From positions 714,149 to 778,148 of the forward strand of contig JAEHCO010000001.1 in NCBI GenBank assembly GCA_020697715.1: a stretch of 64,000 nucleotides of DNA, written 5' to 3'. This document shows, one piece after another, positions 40,019-44,721 of the stretch. The notes beneath the pieces are model-generated. The model saw only the letters and a program-made list of their open reading frames with translations. It was not told where the DNA came from and did not search any database. The stretch comes from Methanobacteriota archaeon (GTDB lineage: Archaea; Thermoplasmatota; Thermoplasmata; SG8-5; JAGLSY01). The position numbers were made by a program, and so were the translations under genes. Position 1 is the stretch's first letter. Each line of letters begins with the position of its first letter.

Positions 40019-41356
40019 TCACTTTCTCTTCCTGGAAACCATTGGCATGATAATACCTATGCCAGCAAACATCAATATCATTATCAAAGTGAGATCGTTC
40101 CCCAGGCCAAGGAATCCGTCCTCGTCGTCCGAGTTATCCCCGTCACCTGTATCGTCGCCATCGGTGTCGTCGTCATCATCATCCGAGGTATCATCATCAA
40201 CAATATCAGGCAAGACAAAGCCATTCACCTTGTATGCAAGTACTCTATTATTGGCAGAATAACTTGTCGCTCTGGTGAGTATGTCCAGGTTTCCATCATC
40301 GTCCAGATCGGCCAATACCAGAGCATCTTCTTCGCCCACATCTATCAATGTGTTTGAAGTGCTCCATATCGATGTCTTGTTCCCCGCATTCCATATCTCA
40401 AGACGGTCAGAGGTGATGACAATTTCCTTATTGCCATCATTGTCCAGGTCCGCGACCTCTATACTGTGTACAGCTCTTCCCAGATCCTCACTTTCCCATT
40501 CCAGTGTTCCTGCGGAATCATAGATATAGACATAACCATGATAGCTCATACCAGTTATTCCGCCTTCGCCCACTATGATCTCCATATCTCCATCAGAATC
40601 CACATCTGCGAGTTCGATGCAGGTGAAGCTCCCATTGAGTGTTTTGTTCAGTTTTATATCAAGGGTCTGGCTATCAATGATGAACAATCTTCCATCATCA
40701 TAGAACTCATCCACCAGAACAACTATCTCTTTATTGCCGCCAGCGATCACATCCGCGACCTCGATATCCCTTGTGATGGCGATATAAGTAATATCGACAG
40801 AGGAACCCTGTATGGTCTGGGTATCCACATCATGAACAGTGACATTGTCACCTACAGTGATTATCTCCGACATACCATCTCCATCAATATCCGCAACTGC
40901 GATATTATCCAGATTGAAAGAGGTTAATTCCCACTCAACAAGCTTGGTGGATGCATCGATCACTACGAAACCCCCGGACAAAGCCCCGGAATAACATATG
41001 ATCTCCAGTGCTGGATCTCCATCCGCCTGAGCGACTTCTATAGTATCGTACGATATCGTGAAATAACCTCCTGAAGAGGGTATCGTGATATTCTCGACGA
41101 ATGTGAAATCAGTAGCAGAATAAACACAGATAATATTACCTGATGCCATAGCCAGTATTTCCAGATCGCCATCCTGGTCTATATCCGCGACCTCCAATCC
41201 CCATTTATCAAAGATATAGTCAGTTAATTTCTCGCTTTCCCATGCTTCCTCCGCATACGGTATTGCTGTTTGTCCAGATGCTGCAAAAGGGGTCATACAA
41301 ATTACTAATATTACAATTATACTAATGCTAAATCTCTTCCACTCCATGGTCATCAT
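40019..41356 (-). CDS. FG-GAP/VCBS-repeat surface protein with acidic linker and C-terminal anchor
   Basis: Signal peptide, ~7 ADxDxDGxxEI repeats, Asp-rich linker, TM helix and RKRK. Confidence 0.85.
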   Translation of the reverse strand: MMTMEWKRFSISIIVILVICMTPFAASGQTAIPYAEEAWESEKLTDYIFDKWGLEVADIDQDGDLEILAMASGNIICVYSATDFTFVENITIPSSGGYFTISYDTIEVAQADGDPALEIICYSGALSGGFVVIDASTKLVEWELTSFNLDNIAVADIDGDGMSEIITVGDNVTVHDVDTQTIQGSSVDITYIAITRDIEVADVIAGGNKEIVVLVDEFYDDGRLFIIDSQTLDIKLNKTLNGSFTCIELADVDSDGDMEIIVGEGGITGMSYHGYVYIYDSAGTLEWESEDLGRAVHSIEVADLDNDGNKEIVITSDRLEIWNAGNKTSIWSTSNTLIDVGEEDALVLADLDDDGNLDILTRATSYSANNRVLAYKVNGFVLPDIVDDDTSDDDDDDTDGDDTGDGDNSDDEDGFLGLGNDLTLIMILMFAGIGIIMPMVSRKRK

Positions 41357-42089: not shown

Positions 42090-42782
42090 ATGAGATCACA
42101 CTGGGTATTTGGTGTTGTAATAGTTCTATCACTTTTAGTTCCAGCTGTATCTGGGTATCCTCAATTGGACTACTATGTCACGGATGATGTCGGAGTCCTT
42201 TTGAGCGATGAGATATACCTCATCGAGCAGGTGTGTTCCGACATGTATTACGAGACCGGGGTGGAGATGGCCATCCTCATCGTGAATGATACTGGCGATG
42301 ATGATATAACCCTTTTCGCGGTAAAAACATTCGAAGAGAATGGCATAGGTCAAGAAGGCGAGGATAATGGCCTTCTTTTCATCATTGTCACTGGTACTGA
42401 TGAATGGCGTATCGAGGTTGGCTATGGTCTGCAAGGCACCTTGCCAGCTATTCTCGTTCATCATATCGCGGAGGATAATCTGGAACCCGCGATGGCACAG
42501 GGTGATTATTTCACCGGCATAGGCAGCACGGTGGCCGAGCTGGCTGATGAGATATTGGAGAATTATGATGGGGAGCCCGTGAAAAAAACAAGCCCTTATC
42601 CGATAAGCTGGCTGCCATTGACGGGTTTCCAATTACTGCTGGTGGGTGTGGTAATTATCGTAATGATAATAACCAAAGGCCAGTTGGTCCTCTGGATACT
42701 GCCCTTTCTCGGAGGCGGTAGTGGGAGAAAGAAATGGGGTGGCGGACGATCTGGTGGTGGAGGATCTAGAGGCAAGCTCTGA
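42090..42782 (+). CDS. TPM domain protein
   Basis: VTDDVGVL, IG....DNGLL, RIEVGYGL and a Gly-rich C-terminus; the usual LemA partner. Confidence 0.9.
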   Translation: MRSHWVFGVVIVLSLLVPAVSGYPQLDYYVTDDVGVLLSDEIYLIEQVCSDMYYETGVEMAILIVNDTGDDDITLFAVKTFEENGIGQEGEDNGLLFIIVTGTDEWRIEVGYGLQGTLPAILVHHIAEDNLEPAMAQGDYFTGIGSTVAELADEILENYDGEPVKKTSPYPISWLPLTGFQLLLVGVVIIVMIITKGQLVLWILPFLGGGSGRKKWGGGRSGGGGSRGKL

Positions 42783-43397
42783 TCAGCAGCTGCAGACCTT
42801 TTCTTCTTTCAGGACCGTGTATCCTTCTTTGAAGAGGAAAACAACCACAAGCAATCCCACTATCGGGTCTGCCTGCCAGAATCCCCACAGATAGTTGGAG
42901 CCAAGCCCGACCAGCAGGGCGATGGACAGGAACATGCACGTCAATGTTTGCTTGGAATCAGCTTCCAGGCTTTTGCTTCCCATGGACCTGGCAGTATGGT
43001 TCTTGGTATAGAACAGAATGGGCATGACAATGAGGGAGGTAATGGCCAGAGCTATCCCCAAAAGGCTTGGATCAGGAATCTCCTGCAAATATAATTTCTT
43101 CACAGATTCATACAGAACATAGGAGCCAAGGATGAAGAAGGTGTAGCCGATGAGTTTAATGGCCTTCTTTTCGATCTTATCTTCTTCTGCCCCGCAAACA
43201 TCCTTCTTGCTGCCGAACCTCCATATCATGATGCAACCAGACAGGGATTCCACAAAGCTGTCCAACCCGAATCCTACCAGGGAAACACTGCCAGTCAATG
43301 AACCAGCAAAGAGAGCGAACATCCCCTCGATCACATTGTAACCCACTGTGAAATATGAAAGAAATAGAGCTCTCTTGTGGAAATCTGCCTTATTCAT
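42783..43397 (-). CDS. Cation diffusion facilitator (TM-only, TMEM163-like)
   Basis: YNVIEG, SLVGFGLDSFVE, LEADS and WQADP motifs. Confidence 0.85.
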   Translation of the reverse strand: MNKADFHKRALFLSYFTVGYNVIEGMFALFAGSLTGSVSLVGFGLDSFVESLSGCIMIWRFGSKKDVCGAEEDKIEKKAIKLIGYTFFILGSYVLYESVKKLYLQEIPDPSLLGIALAITSLIVMPILFYTKNHTARSMGSKSLEADSKQTLTCMFLSIALLVGLGSNYLWGFWQADPIVGLLVVVFLFKEGYTVLKEEKVCSC

Positions 43398-43521
43398 TAT
43401 AATGGCAATCTATTAACAATTGATAATAATTTCGCCATCTTTTGATATTAGACCTAGCCATGGGCTTTCCCAGGGAAATCCCACACTGGATTTATTAGCA
43501 TAATTTTACATTATTATTGAT

Positions 43522-43589
43522 AGGAGGTCAAATTACTGATGCATAGCCAGTAATTCCAACCTCCTTGAAAATAAATTGATAAGGAGGTT
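43522..43589 (+). promoter_or_regulatory. Mutually exclusive SD/anti-SD hairpin leader with a 4-codon uORF
   Basis: AGGAGGT (43522) and AAGGAGGTT (43581) are both complementary to AACCTCCTT (43558). Inner stem AATTACTG/CAGTAATT. uORF ATG CAT AGC CAG TAA. Confidence 0.55.
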
Positions 43590-43595
43590 AAAACT

Positions 43596-43694
43596 ATGAA
43601 CTGCGTAACCTGCAAGGTTTGGGTCAAGATGGCACGCGATGCCGCTCAGCGAGTGTGCACGGCCTGCCAGCAGCAGACATCCAATCCGGTATGA
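43596..43694 (+). CDS. 32-aa zinc-finger micro-protein MNCVTCKVWVKMARDAAQRVCTACQQQTSNPV
   Basis: Strong SD AAGGAGGT 7 nt before the ATG; CxxC-x14-CxxC; below the ORF-track size cut-off. Confidence 0.6.
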   Translation: MNCVTCKVWVKMARDAAQRVCTACQQQTSNPV

Positions 43695-43830
43695 CTACAG
43701 GGAAATGATGCAGTTCATGGAAGTGATAAAATAATAAGCAAAATGGAAGCTCACCTCCTACTGCATCTCCTCTAACTCATAGAATAGGCCAGTCAGCTCA
43801 ATACTGGCCTTTGATTTTTTATTTATAACA

Positions 43831-44721
43831 CTATTTTGATGACAAGGATCTATTCTTTTTATTCCTTCTGATCTTCTTTGACCTTTCCGCCTTTTTGGAA
43901 TATCTGGCCAATAGATAAATAAGCATAATTCCAAAGGCAGCCGGCAGGAGGATGCTGCCAATCATGTCACTGTCCATATCGATATTATCATACGGGAGAC
44001 GAAGGGCTCCGAGCATCAGGCCAGTGAGGAAAGAAATGGTCTGATACTTCCATTTTTTAATCACTATATTGAGGATCTTGGAGAAGGCCAGCAAGCCGAT
44101 TATAGCTCCCAGCATGAAGGCGAATATGTCCACCAGGACCAGGGTCTTGAGTGAATGAAGCATGTACTCGTATTGATTGAGAAATAATAGGATGAGAGCT
44201 CCGGATATTCCTGGCAATATCATGGCGCAGATCGCCACTATGCCAGATAGGAAAATGATGGGCAAGTCATGACCTATTGTCAGGGAGGTCATACCGACAA
44301 AAAGATAGGCGAAGGAAAAGCCAATGAGCAGTAGGGAGATATTGGTAGCTGTCTTCTGCCTTATGCCCATGAATAACATCGCGGCGGATGCCAGTATTAT
44401 CGCGAAAAAGAATGAATAAATTTCAGTCGTGTGGTGTTCCAGAAGATAGCCCATGATATTGGACATCAGAAGAAAGGCCAGGGCGATCCCGCTTCCAAGT
44501 GGAATAAAGAATTCCAGATCCAGTTTCTTATCCTTGGCGACATCCTTTCTCTTAATGGTGTTGATAAGGGTTTCCTTATTAACCTGGCTGATGCCGTGAA
44601 CCAGCCTCTCATAGATGCCAGTAATGAGAGCGACAGTGCCGCCGGACACACCCGGAACTATGTCCGCCATGCCCATGGTCATGCCTTTGAAGAAGATCGA
44701 GCCAGATTCTTTTGGATTCAT
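43831..44721 (-). CDS. DUF368 family membrane protein (putative polyprenyl-phosphate translocase)
   Basis: GMADIVPGVSGGTVA, AMILPGISG and GLMLGAL. Likely ATG at 44721. Confidence 0.9.
   Translation of the reverse strand: MNPKESGSIFFKGMTMGMADIVPGVSGGTVALITGIYERLVHGISQVNKETLINTIKRKDVAKDKKLDLEFFIPLGSGIALAFLLMSNIMGYLLEHHTTEIYSFFFAIILASAAMLFMGIRQKTATNISLLLIGFSFAYLFVGMTSLTIGHDLPIIFLSGIVAICAMILPGISGALILLFLNQYEYMLHSLKTLVLVDIFAFMLGAIIGLLAFSKILNIVIKKWKYQTISFLTGLMLGALRLPYDNIDMDSDMIGSILLPAAFGIMLIYLLARYSKKAERSKKIRRNKKNRSLSSK

Follow-up and report, generated by a model that had tools for sequence, protein, structure and literature searches.

A candidate fold-back lock on the mRNA of a four-cysteine micro-protein in cold-seep Thermoplasmata-class archaea

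A short open reading frame with four cysteines lies in a 64-kb stretch of archaeal DNA (hereafter the window, to which all coordinates refer), preceded by two Shine-Dalgarno (SD) sequences and a complement to them. This arrangement raises two questions: is the frame a gene, and does the folding of its mRNA control its translation? The first-pass annotation had proposed a metal-binding micro-protein governed by a two-state leader switch, and all the sequence features that it listed were found where it had placed them. Our best explanation, to which we give about an even chance, is an icaR/hok-like fold-back lock to which a young leader cassette was later added.

We compared the full orthologous DNA sequences of this genome (G000) and its two sequenced congeners (G003 and G002), a sample (n = 3) that makes a formal covariation statistic impossible. 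Column-wise pair counts on the three-sequence alignment are unreliable, since the SD is displaced by one column in the MAFFT alignment and G002 pairs in another register.

The micro-gene and its surroundings

The gene, its divergent neighbour and the presumptive transcription signals are as follows.

42783-43397, minus strand: 204-aa cation-efflux (CDF) protein, the divergent neighbour (PF01545, E = 6e-17)
43462-43482, strand unassigned: double 10-bp box GGGCTTTCCC-A-GGGAAATCCC, which precedes the TATA-like box by 9 nt and is kept in G003 and G002
43491-43498, plus strand: TATA-like box TTTATTAG, conserved (TTATAAG in the relatives)
43596-43694, plus strand: micro-ORF MNCVTCKVWVKMARDAAQRVCTACQQQTSNPV, 32 aa, CxxC-x14-CxxC, supported by the orthologues, the family alignment and dN/dS
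43787-43825, plus strand: terminator-like hairpin GGCCAGT/ACTGGCC followed by a T-run; stem and T-run occur in all three orthologues and the loop varies

The cysteine pattern of the peptide (C3, C6, C21 and C24, in the motifs CVTC and CTAC) is kept in database proteins and in the two congeners, whose peptides are 94% and 77% identical to this genome's copy, and the dN/dS of the micro-ORF is 0.24-0.31. Alignment of six family members (G000, the two congeners and three database proteins) revealed 14 columns invariant in 6/6, namely the four cysteines and ten others. A profile search of 1.84 billion representative proteins returned five matches at E <= 0.001, three of which (31, 42 and 96 aa) span the whole core in the alignment. 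By reading, six of the nine ORF differences listed for seep contigs are synonymous. This conservation bears out the earlier view of the 32-aa frame as a real gene and points to a genuine micro-protein gene of 31-32 aa, four-cysteine and zinc-ribbon-like. An overlapping frame at 43639-43734, which by reading stays open over some 70 codons in G003 and G002, was rejected as a gene: it has no SD, and its only part common to the relatives, DYRE.MQ, corresponds to the conserved RNA box.

The peptide search of 401 class genomes gave three strong matches, all in the genus, together with six weak partial ones that we took as chance, and a search of genome contigs gave two loci, those of the two congeners. 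The peptide had no match in the metagenome-contig scans and no copies in viral contigs, the exact protein is absent from a 15-billion-protein collection, and the gene is single copy in its own genome. As far as searched, the micro-protein appears restricted to one genus of uncultured cold-seep Thermoplasmata-class archaea.

The C4 zinc-ribbon pattern, two CxxC pairs in 6/6 members, predicts a zinc site in a hydrophilic peptide that has no membrane helix. Scores stayed below the Pfam cut-offs for Zn_ribbon_8 (FmdB-like; 17.0 versus 34.4 bits) and DZR_2 (13.9 versus 27 bits), and a PDB profile search with the peptide gave 0 matches. A protein atlas returned unnamed clusters as well as YhfH and DUF4428 at 0.89, which serve as leads only, and the AlphaFold2 model contains two beta-hairpins, weak at a pLDDT of 68.5.

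The micro-gene is syntenic in three species, between TPM and PF04018/ABC-ATPase genes. On its divergent side, G003 and G002 carry a 49-aa zinc-ribbon ORF (CPxC...CPxC) and no CDF gene at that position, and the similarity of G000 to G003 resumes near 43462. The proposed link to a metal exporter is seen in this genome and in some seep contigs, and not in the congeners.

The double box is a candidate transcription-factor site. Its exact form is the sole copy in the genome; a near-copy at contig C11:287280 likewise precedes a TATA by 9 nt, that of a leaderless membrane-protein ORF of 111 aa. In the SD-less (leaderless) genes of this genome, TATA-like hexamers are most frequent 31-29 nt upstream of the ATG, and the position of the TATA-like box at 43491 would put the transcript start near 43520-43522. 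An alternative AT-rich TATA nearer the ATG, if used, could make the mRNA leaderless and the SD irrelevant.

Predicted pairing between the start region and the 3'UTR

Two blocks downstream of the stop codon are complementary to the translation start.

43698-43720, plus strand: proximal 3'UTR box CAGG ... ATGCAGTTCATGG, whose complements are codons 5-6 and the start region 43594-43606
43753-43775, plus strand: distal 3'UTR block, comprising the anti-SD ACCTCCT(A), the start-region mimic ACTGCATC and the CU-rich TCTCCTCTAA

The 13-bp pairing of start region and 3'UTR noted earlier is present, and it is the part conserved in relatives. The segment ATGCAGTTCATGG (43708-43720) meets the start region over 13 bp including 2 G-U pairs, 9 bp being exact; the helices of the proximal box measure 13 bp and 4 bp, and its alternative partner is 43760-43767. 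The first-pass annotation had overlooked a second, distal anti-SD, ACCTCCTA, at 43753-43760 in the 3'UTR. The conserved distal block CCTCCTAC(C)TGCATCTCCTCTA occurs in G000 and G003 and in weaker form in G002. Its partner in full-length folds is the SD in G003 and G002 and either SD1 or SD2 in G000; in the two orthologues with a single SD, it is GGAGG that the MFE fold of the full-length RNA sets against the CCUCC box of the 3'UTR.

The predicted TIR/3'UTR duplex reaches -30.5 kcal/mol in G000, -25.6 in G003 and -25.8 in G002. Shuffled duplexes average -12 to -14 (sd about 2.6), and the observed value was reached by 0/1000 of them in each orthologue; likewise, 0/3000 random genomic 93-mers attained -30.5 or lower (minimum -28.3). 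The duplex has a z-score of -6.9, while the z-scores of 180 control genes have a mean of -0.16 (sd 1.06, minimum -3.5), and raw duplexes as low as -30.5 occur in 4/180 control gene/3'-flank pairs, all with GC-rich TIRs. CCTCC is found in only 3/180 control 3' flanks and is conserved at the micro-gene. The TGCA-type palindromes in the Cys codons mean that some pairing is easily obtained.

Complementarity is retained in G003 and G002 through shifted or changed partners (n = 3 sequences). Codons 4-7 are changed in G002, and its 3'UTR has UGCAGGUUG (9 bp) and a relocated AGUUCA (6 bp to UGAACU). The boxes that pair are conserved, whereas the intervening 22-58 nt differ in both length and sequence. 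Two properties expected of an icaR/hok-type system appear in these models: complementarity beyond chance, in 3/3 orthologues, and its persistence despite sequence change.

Folding the 3'UTR in isolation revealed a competing self-hairpin, box A on box B', in 3/3 orthologues (-19.4, -24.5 and -13.0 kcal/mol), which we predict to be the alternative conformer; the boxes could also be conserved for this hairpin alone. The predicted cost of opening the TIR at 37 C is 12.7, 11.8 and 10.2 kcal/mol in the three orthologues. In the models this is not unusual among control genes (n = 180; mean 8.1, sd 4.5), whose cost is at least 10 in 53/180 and at least 12.7 in 27/180.

We propose that an mRNA of roughly 230-290 nt folds back on itself. 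The distal CCUCC box would pair with the Shine-Dalgarno sequence and the proximal box with the AUG and first codons, so that the finished transcript would hide its own ribosome-binding site. Pairing of the two 3'UTR boxes with each other would yield the open conformer. On this scheme the mRNA would be translated in three situations only: during transcription, as long as the 3'UTR has yet to be made; under conditions that favour the 3'UTR self-hairpin; or once the 3'UTR has been removed.

The leader cassette and its history

Upstream of the gene, G000 carries additional elements, all on the plus strand.

43522-43528, plus strand: SD1 AGGAGGT, probably the extreme 5' end of the mRNA
43531-43589, plus strand: leader indel of 59-60 nt in the alignment, which G003 and G002 lack, with a direct repeat at its flanks
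43531-43555, plus strand: 8-bp hairpin AATTACTG (43531-43538) / CAGTAATT (43548-43555) with a 9-nt loop, present in every predicted state
43539-43553, plus strand: putatively translated uORF MHSQ* of 4 codons (ATG CAT AGC CAG TAA), not in the orthologues
43558-43566, plus strand: local anti-SD AACCTCCTT, paired with SD2 in MFE folds
43581-43589, plus strand: SD2 AAGGAGGTT of the micro-ORF, its GGAGG 13 nt before the ATG, the genome's optimum

SD1 can pair with the local anti-SD or, as TAGGAGGT (43521-43528), with the distal anti-SD at 43753-43760; the uORF has its ATG within the hairpin loop and its stop within the 3' arm. The arrangement is more than chance would give. Counting both strands, the 64-kb window has three copies of the 9-mer of SD2 and anti-SD where 0.53 would be expected, two of them being this pair, and an upstream SD complement of at least 8 nt accompanies only 2 of the genome's 180 GGAGG-bearing genes of at least 100 aa. 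The fold of 43500-43740 (-73.2 kcal/mol, z = -3.9) was matched by 0/200 shuffles. GGAGG in this genome peaks 14 to 12 nt before the ATG (24, 33 and 49 of 172); G003 and G002 retain a single GGAGG, at -14 and -12, and SD1, at -16 from the uORF ATG, occupies a fringe position (8/172). An SSU rRNA sought for anti-SD comparison was not present in the genome's own assembly.

The alternative SD/anti-SD pairings that the first-pass annotation described are indeed available, and in the isolated leader (43515-43625) their energies nearly coincide, at -24.4 kcal/mol for SD1 with the anti-SD and -23.9 for the anti-SD with SD2. Its 'ON' state proves masked in the full-length model. There, SD1 on the distal box with the local anti-SD on SD2 gives -86.3 kcal/mol, versus -83.8 when SD1 takes the local anti-SD and SD2 pairs with the distal 3'UTR anti-SD; both SDs are masked in both leader states. 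The geometry of an attenuator is present (uORF 43539-43553, anti-SD 43558-43566, SD2 43581-43589), with fringe SD1 spacing and a second, distal mask on SD2. A riboswitch-like reading finds little footing, the module being absent from the orthologues and no Rfam family reaching its gathering score: a permissive Rfam search of 42500-44500 gave three sub-threshold matches, the best being caiA (25.6 bits versus a gathering score of 55.5, E = 0.18).

SD1, hairpin, uORF and anti-SD all lie on the 59-60-nt indel, whose exact borders are ambiguous because a direct repeat, TTGATAGGAGGT (43517-43528) / TTGATAAGGAGGT (43577-43589), flanks it. Both congeners and three single-SD metagenome contigs are without the module, which therefore cannot be the core control of the family and is no conserved regulator; for the same reason no covariation test of the leader is possible. 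The insert is present in seep contigs 6, 7 and 9 (runs X1-X3), and contigs 4 and 8 skip it; the sequencing runs listed for the locus are all of DNA. The three insert-bearing contigs have zero listed differences over 43520-43593, yet their ORF differs and their upstream flank is G002-like: a second, diverged lineage shares the insert letter for letter. This identity extends to loop and spacer bases, which recent transfer fits better than structural constraint. As to conservation of a leader peptide or stall site, the uORF is missing in the orthologues, and the only other carrier, having an identical cassette, offers no independent test.

The insert is single copy in its own genome, where the only other match is 27 nt at 90% identity (41135-41163, E = 0.02). 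The 400 other class genomes gave only short, chance-level AT-rich matches (40/401 genomes), none in the genus. Two origins were rejected: a tandem duplication of the gene start, whose likeness ends after about 16 nt with the rest equalled by 1747/2000 shuffles, and a MITE-like mobile element, given the single copy and its absence from 400 class genomes. The insert's direct repeat is about 12-16 nt, and its inverted repeat lies in the interior instead of at the ends. The case calls for caution, as it shows that a two-state structure, however striking in one genome, can rest on a recent indel.

We read the cassette as a 60-nt insertion at the SD, shared by this genome and one other lineage, that would have supplied a second SD, a local anti-SD and a hairpin enclosing a uORF of 4 codons. 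Since the added SD comes with an added anti-SD, masking would be kept, and neither leader state would leave an SD unpaired. A 5'-terminal stem-loop and an extra, local lock are the cassette's most likely contribution. Its distribution points to a young elaboration and not to the core mechanism.

Rival readings and known systems

The interpretation first given to the locus is borne out in part: the micro-gene, the SD/anti-SD alternatives and the start/3'UTR pairing are supported, and the leader as core control, its open state, the riboswitch and a general exporter link are not. As a rival reading, that interpretation makes the leader the main regulator of a CDF-linked metal-binding peptide, a toggle that either ribosome loading at the MHSQ uORF or a ligand or metal would set. 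We regard this as unlikely. The two leader states are indeed near iso-energetic, and the anti-SD begins 5 nt past the uORF stop, a geometry from which a terminating ribosome could cover it. The predicted opening cost at 10 C is also higher in G000 (22.5 kcal/mol) than in the orthologues (14.4 and 15.4). Selection could explain a letter-identical cassette between diverged flanks, but the loop and spacer identity fits recent transfer better. The toggle is further opposed by its absence from both congeners and three single-SD seep contigs, the lack of an aptamer-like conserved element or Rfam match, the masking of SD2 in both full-length states, the fringe spacing of SD1 (8/172 at -16) and the unconserved CDF adjacency. 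Joining the two ideas, the whole mRNA might be a hok-like two-conformer lock and the cassette a laterally spreading regulatory module, together forming an archaeal translational attenuator. The closed form would hold SD and AUG on the two 3'UTR boxes and the open form box on box, with the cassette blocking co-transcriptional translation and opening dependent on ribosome traffic over the uORF; we think this joint reading distinctly improbable.

A simpler possibility, to which we assign a low but appreciable probability, is that there is no translational control: the insert would be a neutral young indel, the 3'UTR boxes would be kept for their own stem-loop (stability or termination), and the TIR complementarity would be a by-product of TGCA and CU-rich motifs. 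The self-hairpin predicted in 3/3 orthologues, an opening cost inside the control range and the addition of one SD with one anti-SD all favour it. Against it, the segments that pair with the AUG (GUUCAUGG in G000 and, in G002, the relocated AGUUCA) are not part of the self-hairpin stem and are still complementary to the start region, the z-score of -6.9 is far from the control minimum of -3.5, and CCTCC, conserved here, is in only 3/180 control 3' flanks. Nested inverted repeats could instead act as DNA, as flanking protein-binding sites or relic ends of a small mobile element carrying the micro-ORF. Inverted repeats I2 and I4 do bracket the ORF, and CAGGGAAAT recurs in the upstream double box and just past the stop, conserved in relatives. 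This is nevertheless very unlikely for a single-copy gene, syntenic between TPM and PF04018/ABC-ATPase genes in three species and without copies in viral contigs, at which G-U pairs and register shifts preserve RNA pairing and not DNA identity. We judge equally remote a type I toxin-antitoxin-like system, with a harmful peptide silenced by a hok-like fold-back and an antisense RNA. The architecture resembles hok tac/fbi as far as the available account goes (PMC9841398), and the local anti-SD of G000 could block co-transcriptional translation, but the peptide is hydrophilic, has four cysteines and no membrane helix, unlike type I toxins, the gene is single copy and syntenic, and by eye no conserved antisense promoter was seen in the three 3'UTRs.

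The fold-back lock with a later cassette matters since translational control by mRNA structure in archaea is barely charted; keyword searches of the open-access literature gave neither an archaeal 3'UTR anti-SD masking its own SD nor an archaeal leader-peptide attenuator. If the fold-back works, icaR/hok-type self-masking would extend to archaea, and to a gene missed by gene callers. The two-conformer lock, if true, would give Archaea their first 5'/3'-UTR SD-masking system resolved to base pairs. Close lineages with the same gene, with and without the SD/anti-SD/uORF cassette, form a natural experiment in which the cassette's effect is directly measurable.

At the protein level, the nearest parallels are the zinc-finger micro-proteins of Haloferax volcanii with two C(P)XCG motifs, in the portions of the reports available (PMC10716476, PMC11241148). 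Like them, the present peptide is archaeal, below 70 aa and has two CxxC pairs with one zinc ion predicted; it differs in having CVTC/CTAC instead of C(P)XCG and in being shorter (31-32 aa). No sequence relationship to them was detected, with Pfam below cut-off and the PDB search without a match. For haloarchaeal mRNAs, the accessible part of one study reports that translational regulation needs the 5'- and 3'-UTR together (PMC2636863). The dependence there is functional, and that part describes no SD/anti-SD pairing, whereas here the pairing is explicit and predicted only.

The erm/cat leader-peptide attenuators carry, ahead of the hairpin in which the main SD is sequestered, a short uORF served by a separate SD; a ribosome on this uORF remodels the hairpin. 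Upstream RBS occlusion is a further comparison system, to the extent that its source is accessible (PMC13285730). The G000 leader resembles both in placing a short uORF with its own SD before an SD-sequestering hairpin that a ribosome could remodel. The differences are that the G000 uORF has only 4 codons, is unconserved and sits on a 60-nt indel, with no stalling signal known here, that the anti-SD has two SD copies as alternative partners, and that a further, distal mask is available for the main SD.

The hok/Sok mRNA closes through the fold-back pairings tac/fbi and ucb/dcb, as the available text describes (PMC9841398). On that description, the two share a long-range 5'/3' pairing that closes the full-length mRNA, alternative pairings that open it, and a local 5' element that can mask the SD. 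Unlike hok, the micro-gene is neither plasmid-borne nor multi-copy, its product is hydrophilic, neither an antisense RNA nor a mok-like overlapping frame was found, and 3' processing is not known here.

In the icaR mRNA of Staphylococcus aureus, a 3'UTR UCCCCUG motif pairs with the SD, according to the available portion of the report (PMC3868564). Relative to that account, the present case has an archaeal host and a 32-aa gene, a second 3'UTR box that also covers the AUG and first codons, and a competing 3'UTR self-hairpin predicted; its masking is predicted from sequence, with RNase III-type cleavage not known. What it shares with icaR is a 3'UTR anti-SD that is complementary to the SD of the same mRNA, conserved in relatives and expected to block initiation.

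The micro-protein gene and its setting

The 32-residue ORF and the leader and 3′ elements described for it in the first-pass annotation were all located in the window, and the inverted repeats among them were recovered independently by repeat detection. The interpretation offered with them finds partial support. SD1 and SD2 denote the upstream and downstream Shine-Dalgarno copies.

43522-28: SD1, AGGAGGT (read directly and by inverted-repeat detection)
43531-38 / 43548-55: hairpin of 8 bp, arms AATTACTG / CAGTAATT (inverted-repeat detection)
43539-53: upstream ORF (uORF) of 4 codons, ATG CAT AGC CAG TAA (sequence reading)
43558-66: local anti-SD, AACCTCCTT (inverted-repeat detection)
43581-89: SD2, AAGGAGGTT (inverted-repeat detection)
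43596-43694: micro-ORF of 32 aa, Cys at 3, 6, 21 and 24 (translation)
43708-20: 3′ segment complementary to the start region (inverted-repeat detection)

Its occurrence in the genus, family conservation, dN/dS and synonymous differences show that the micro-ORF is a real gene under selection. The peptide is present in three of the four genomes of the genus, the remaining one being 78% complete; the other 397 class genomes searched gave no convincing match. Profile searching against 1.84 billion representative proteins yielded five matches, three of which (31, 42 and 96 aa) align across the whole core, and M1, N2, C3, C6, V8, W9, M12, D15, A16, A17, Q18, C21, C24 and one Gln are invariant in 6/6 sequences. 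Among the three orthologues, from the window's own genome (G000) and two congeners (G003 and G002), dN/dS is 0.24-0.31, and 6 of the 9 ORF differences listed in seep contigs, read by eye, are synonymous. The label "hidden" was fair, since a collection of 15 billion proteins lacks the exact peptide. A PDB search with the peptide found no relative, its Pfam zinc-ribbon matches all fell under family cut-offs, and protein-atlas leads were weak; the structure model comprises two beta-hairpins (pLDDT 68.5). The few sequencing runs in which parts of the locus occur are cold-seep metagenomes.

The neighbours are LemA, a TPM-domain protein, a CDF protein, a PF04018 membrane protein and an ABC-ATPase with Fer4 domains. 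Divergence from a metal exporter, as originally proposed, holds for the window's genome, and the CDF-side flank also occurs in some seep contigs (records 4, 5 and 8), but in both congeners the divergent gene is instead a short CPxC...CPxC ORF.

L024:2740-2886 (G003 locus) and L025:2742-2888 (G002 locus), minus strand: 49-aa zinc-ribbon ORF (MAKCP.CKNQ...CPICE.ILGFSRGNYS), conserved in both congeners

This ORF was not found in the window's genome (best match E 0.06), which has the CDF gene at that position; from ~43462 onward the sequence is again homologous to G003. Judged by gene order, exporter adjacency is lineage-specific and offers little functional guidance.

A conserved TATA-like box (43491-98) predicts a transcript start near 43521; in leaderless genes of this genome, TATA-like hexamers are most frequent 31-29 nt ahead of the ATG. 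The T-run after a conserved hairpin (43787-43825) likely marks the transcript end. Nine nucleotides upstream of the TATA-like box lies a double 10-bp palindromic box, GGGCTTTCCC-A-GGGAAATCCC (43462-43482), and a near-copy, GGGAAATCCC-A-GGGTCTTCCC, occurs outside the window at C11:287280 of the same genome, with the same spacing to a TATA box serving a leaderless 111-aa membrane ORF; the two promoters may form a small candidate regulon under a common transcription factor. The 9-mer CAGGGAAAT occurs within the double box (43471-43479) and just past the stop (43698-43706), both copies being conserved in the congeners. With the convergent PF04018 gene ending at 43831 and the only minus-strand terminator-like site within 43725-43830 lying at 43758-43745, the mRNA of that gene and that of the micro-ORF may overlap antisense across the distal anti-SD of the 3′UTR.

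The leader cassette as an indel

By several measures the leader arrangement is not a chance one. The window contains three copies of the SD/anti-SD 9-mer where 0.53 would be expected, and none of 200 shuffles folds as low as the 241-nt segment (z = -3.9). Among 180 further genes of the genome with a GGAGG, just 2 have an upstream complement of at least 8 nt to their own SD, and the two states of the isolated leader are predicted to be near iso-energetic (-24.4 and -23.9 kcal/mol). The two other cases are related leaders outside the window, on contig C28 of the same genome near 174855 and 191929, where the SD is sequestered by 8-10-nt hairpins (…ACCTCCAAAATTATGGAGGT…) directly 5′ of ORFs of at least 100 aa. 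SD sequences are in use in this genome, with GGAGG peaking 14-12 nt before the ATG; SD2 sits at this optimum, and SD1, at -16 from the uORF ATG, at the edge of the observed range.

The energies of the isolated leader speak for the proposed two-state SD/anti-SD switch, but the switch lies on an indel: both congeners align with one SD each and miss the 59-60 nt in which the hairpin, uORF, anti-SD and SD2 reside. A direct repeat, TTGATA(A)GGAGGT, borders the insert, with repeat-unit similarity ending after ~16 nt; the insert is single copy in its genome, and a scan of 400 other class genomes did not show it to be a repeat family.

Contigs of three seep metagenomes from 2 studies yielded 11 records aligned to the window. 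Records 6, 7 and 9 span 43520 and the insert into the ORF, without a listed difference over 43520-43593 and lacking 2 nt at 43594; in records 7 and 9, all "other letters" are explained by listed mismatches and gap letters. The same three diverge from the window within the ORF (e.g., 43606, 43643, 43655 and 43667), and their upstream flank is G002-like, unlike the window's. In records 4 and 8 a stretch of 81-86 nt is missing and there is one SD; record 10 has one GGAGG within 30 letters 5′ of the ORF. From these insert-bearing and single-SD records, the cassette is a presence/absence polymorphism, letter-identical in two diverged lineages. In record 10 (run X3), ...GGAGGTATGAAAT precedes 43597, which suggests that this lineage starts in another context, perhaps at a TTG.

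Because the identity includes loop and spacer bases while the flanks have diverged, recent lateral spread fits the cassette's history better than ancient constraint; recurrent deletion between the direct repeats is a possible rival to spread. The leader toggle is a recent 60-nt cassette common to two lineages, with a putative regulatory role. A 29-nt stretch 2.4 kb upstream (ATTACCTGATGCCATAGCCAGTATTTCCA, 41135-41163) resembles the insert's hairpin and uORF (26/29 with 2 gaps; genome-wide E 0.02) and may be its source or a chance match. G003-like lineages carry an extra ~26-nt segment 3′ of the proximal 3′UTR box (L024:3121-3146; a seep-contig loose end after 43720) containing TTACTGAT, also present in the insert (43533-40).

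A conserved, predicted 5′/3′ fold-back

The conserved feature is a predicted 5′/3′ fold-back that hides the ribosome-binding site; RNA ends, RNA structure and translation at the micro-ORF are all as we infer them. When putative transcripts were folded from start to terminator, the GGAGG of the single-SD orthologues paired with a conserved CCUCC box ~150-185 nt downstream, and the start region with the proximal 3′UTR box. The 13-bp complementarity of the start region noted initially was present in the window, and the predicted fold-back is conserved in both congeners. The predicted window helices are:

43582-88 : 43753-59: 7 bp
43594-606 : 43708-20: 13 bp
43609-12 : 43698-701: 4 bp

The duplex that the 3′UTR forms in prediction with the SD and start region of the same gene (TIR, -19 to +17) has energies of -30.5 (G000), -25.6 (G003) and -25.8 (G002) kcal/mol, against shuffle means of -12 to -14, with 0/1000 shuffles matching the observed energy in each orthologue; no random genomic 93-mer (0/3000) reached -30.5. 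In G002, where codons 4-7 are changed, the 3′UTR supplies UGCAGGUUG (9 bp) as well as an AGUUCA that has moved (6 bp with UGAACU). When 180 GGAGG genes were each set against their own 3′ flank, 4 had raw energies of -30.5 or lower and 10 of -25 or lower; such low-energy controls have GC-rich TIRs. After shuffle normalisation, the micro-ORF scores z -6.9, and z for the controls averages -0.16 (sd 1.06, minimum -3.5). CCTCC occurs in 3/180 control 3′ flanks.

To keep the TIR single-stranded takes 12.7, 11.8 and 10.2 kcal/mol at 37 °C and 22.5, 14.4 and 15.4 at 10 °C (G000, G003 and G002, respectively). Pairing strength lends no support, because the 37 °C costs lie within the control range (mean 8.1, sd 4.5; 27/180 at least 12.7); the case for function is the specificity and conservation of the pairing. 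The 96-aa profile match, P0002, fuses the zinc-ribbon core to a tail (...IRYDYR.M...) that is the window's conserved 3′UTR box read in another frame; the nucleotide box seems conserved in this more distant, frame-shifted relative.

In the isolated 3′UTR, the proximal box (GAUGCAGU) pairs with ACUGCAUC, adjoining the distal anti-SD. Because this self-pairing is predicted in 3/3 orthologues, a closed form (TIR on 3′UTR) would compete with an open form (3′UTR on itself). In the window's full-length minimum (-86.3), SD1 is bound by the distal anti-SD and SD2 by the local one; in the alternative (-83.8) the partners are exchanged. The "ON" state envisaged earlier is thus not open in the full-length model; since both SDs are masked in both states, it would open only before the 3′UTR exists or when the 3′UTR self-folds.

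Relation to known regulatory systems

The leader cassette is similar to attenuators of the erm/cat type and to upstream-RBS occlusion, but lacks the conservation among relatives expected of an attenuator. Keyword searches of open-access text returned no archaeal example of 3′UTR fold-back SD masking or of a leader attenuator. In haloarchaea, translational regulation requires both UTRs together, although SD masking is not part of the abstract's account (PMC2636863). The closest mechanistic relatives of the fold-back are all bacterial: icaR, whose 3′UTR UCCCCUG motif is described as pairing with the SD (PMC3868564), and hok, with its tac/fbi fold-back and alternative pairings (PMC9841398).
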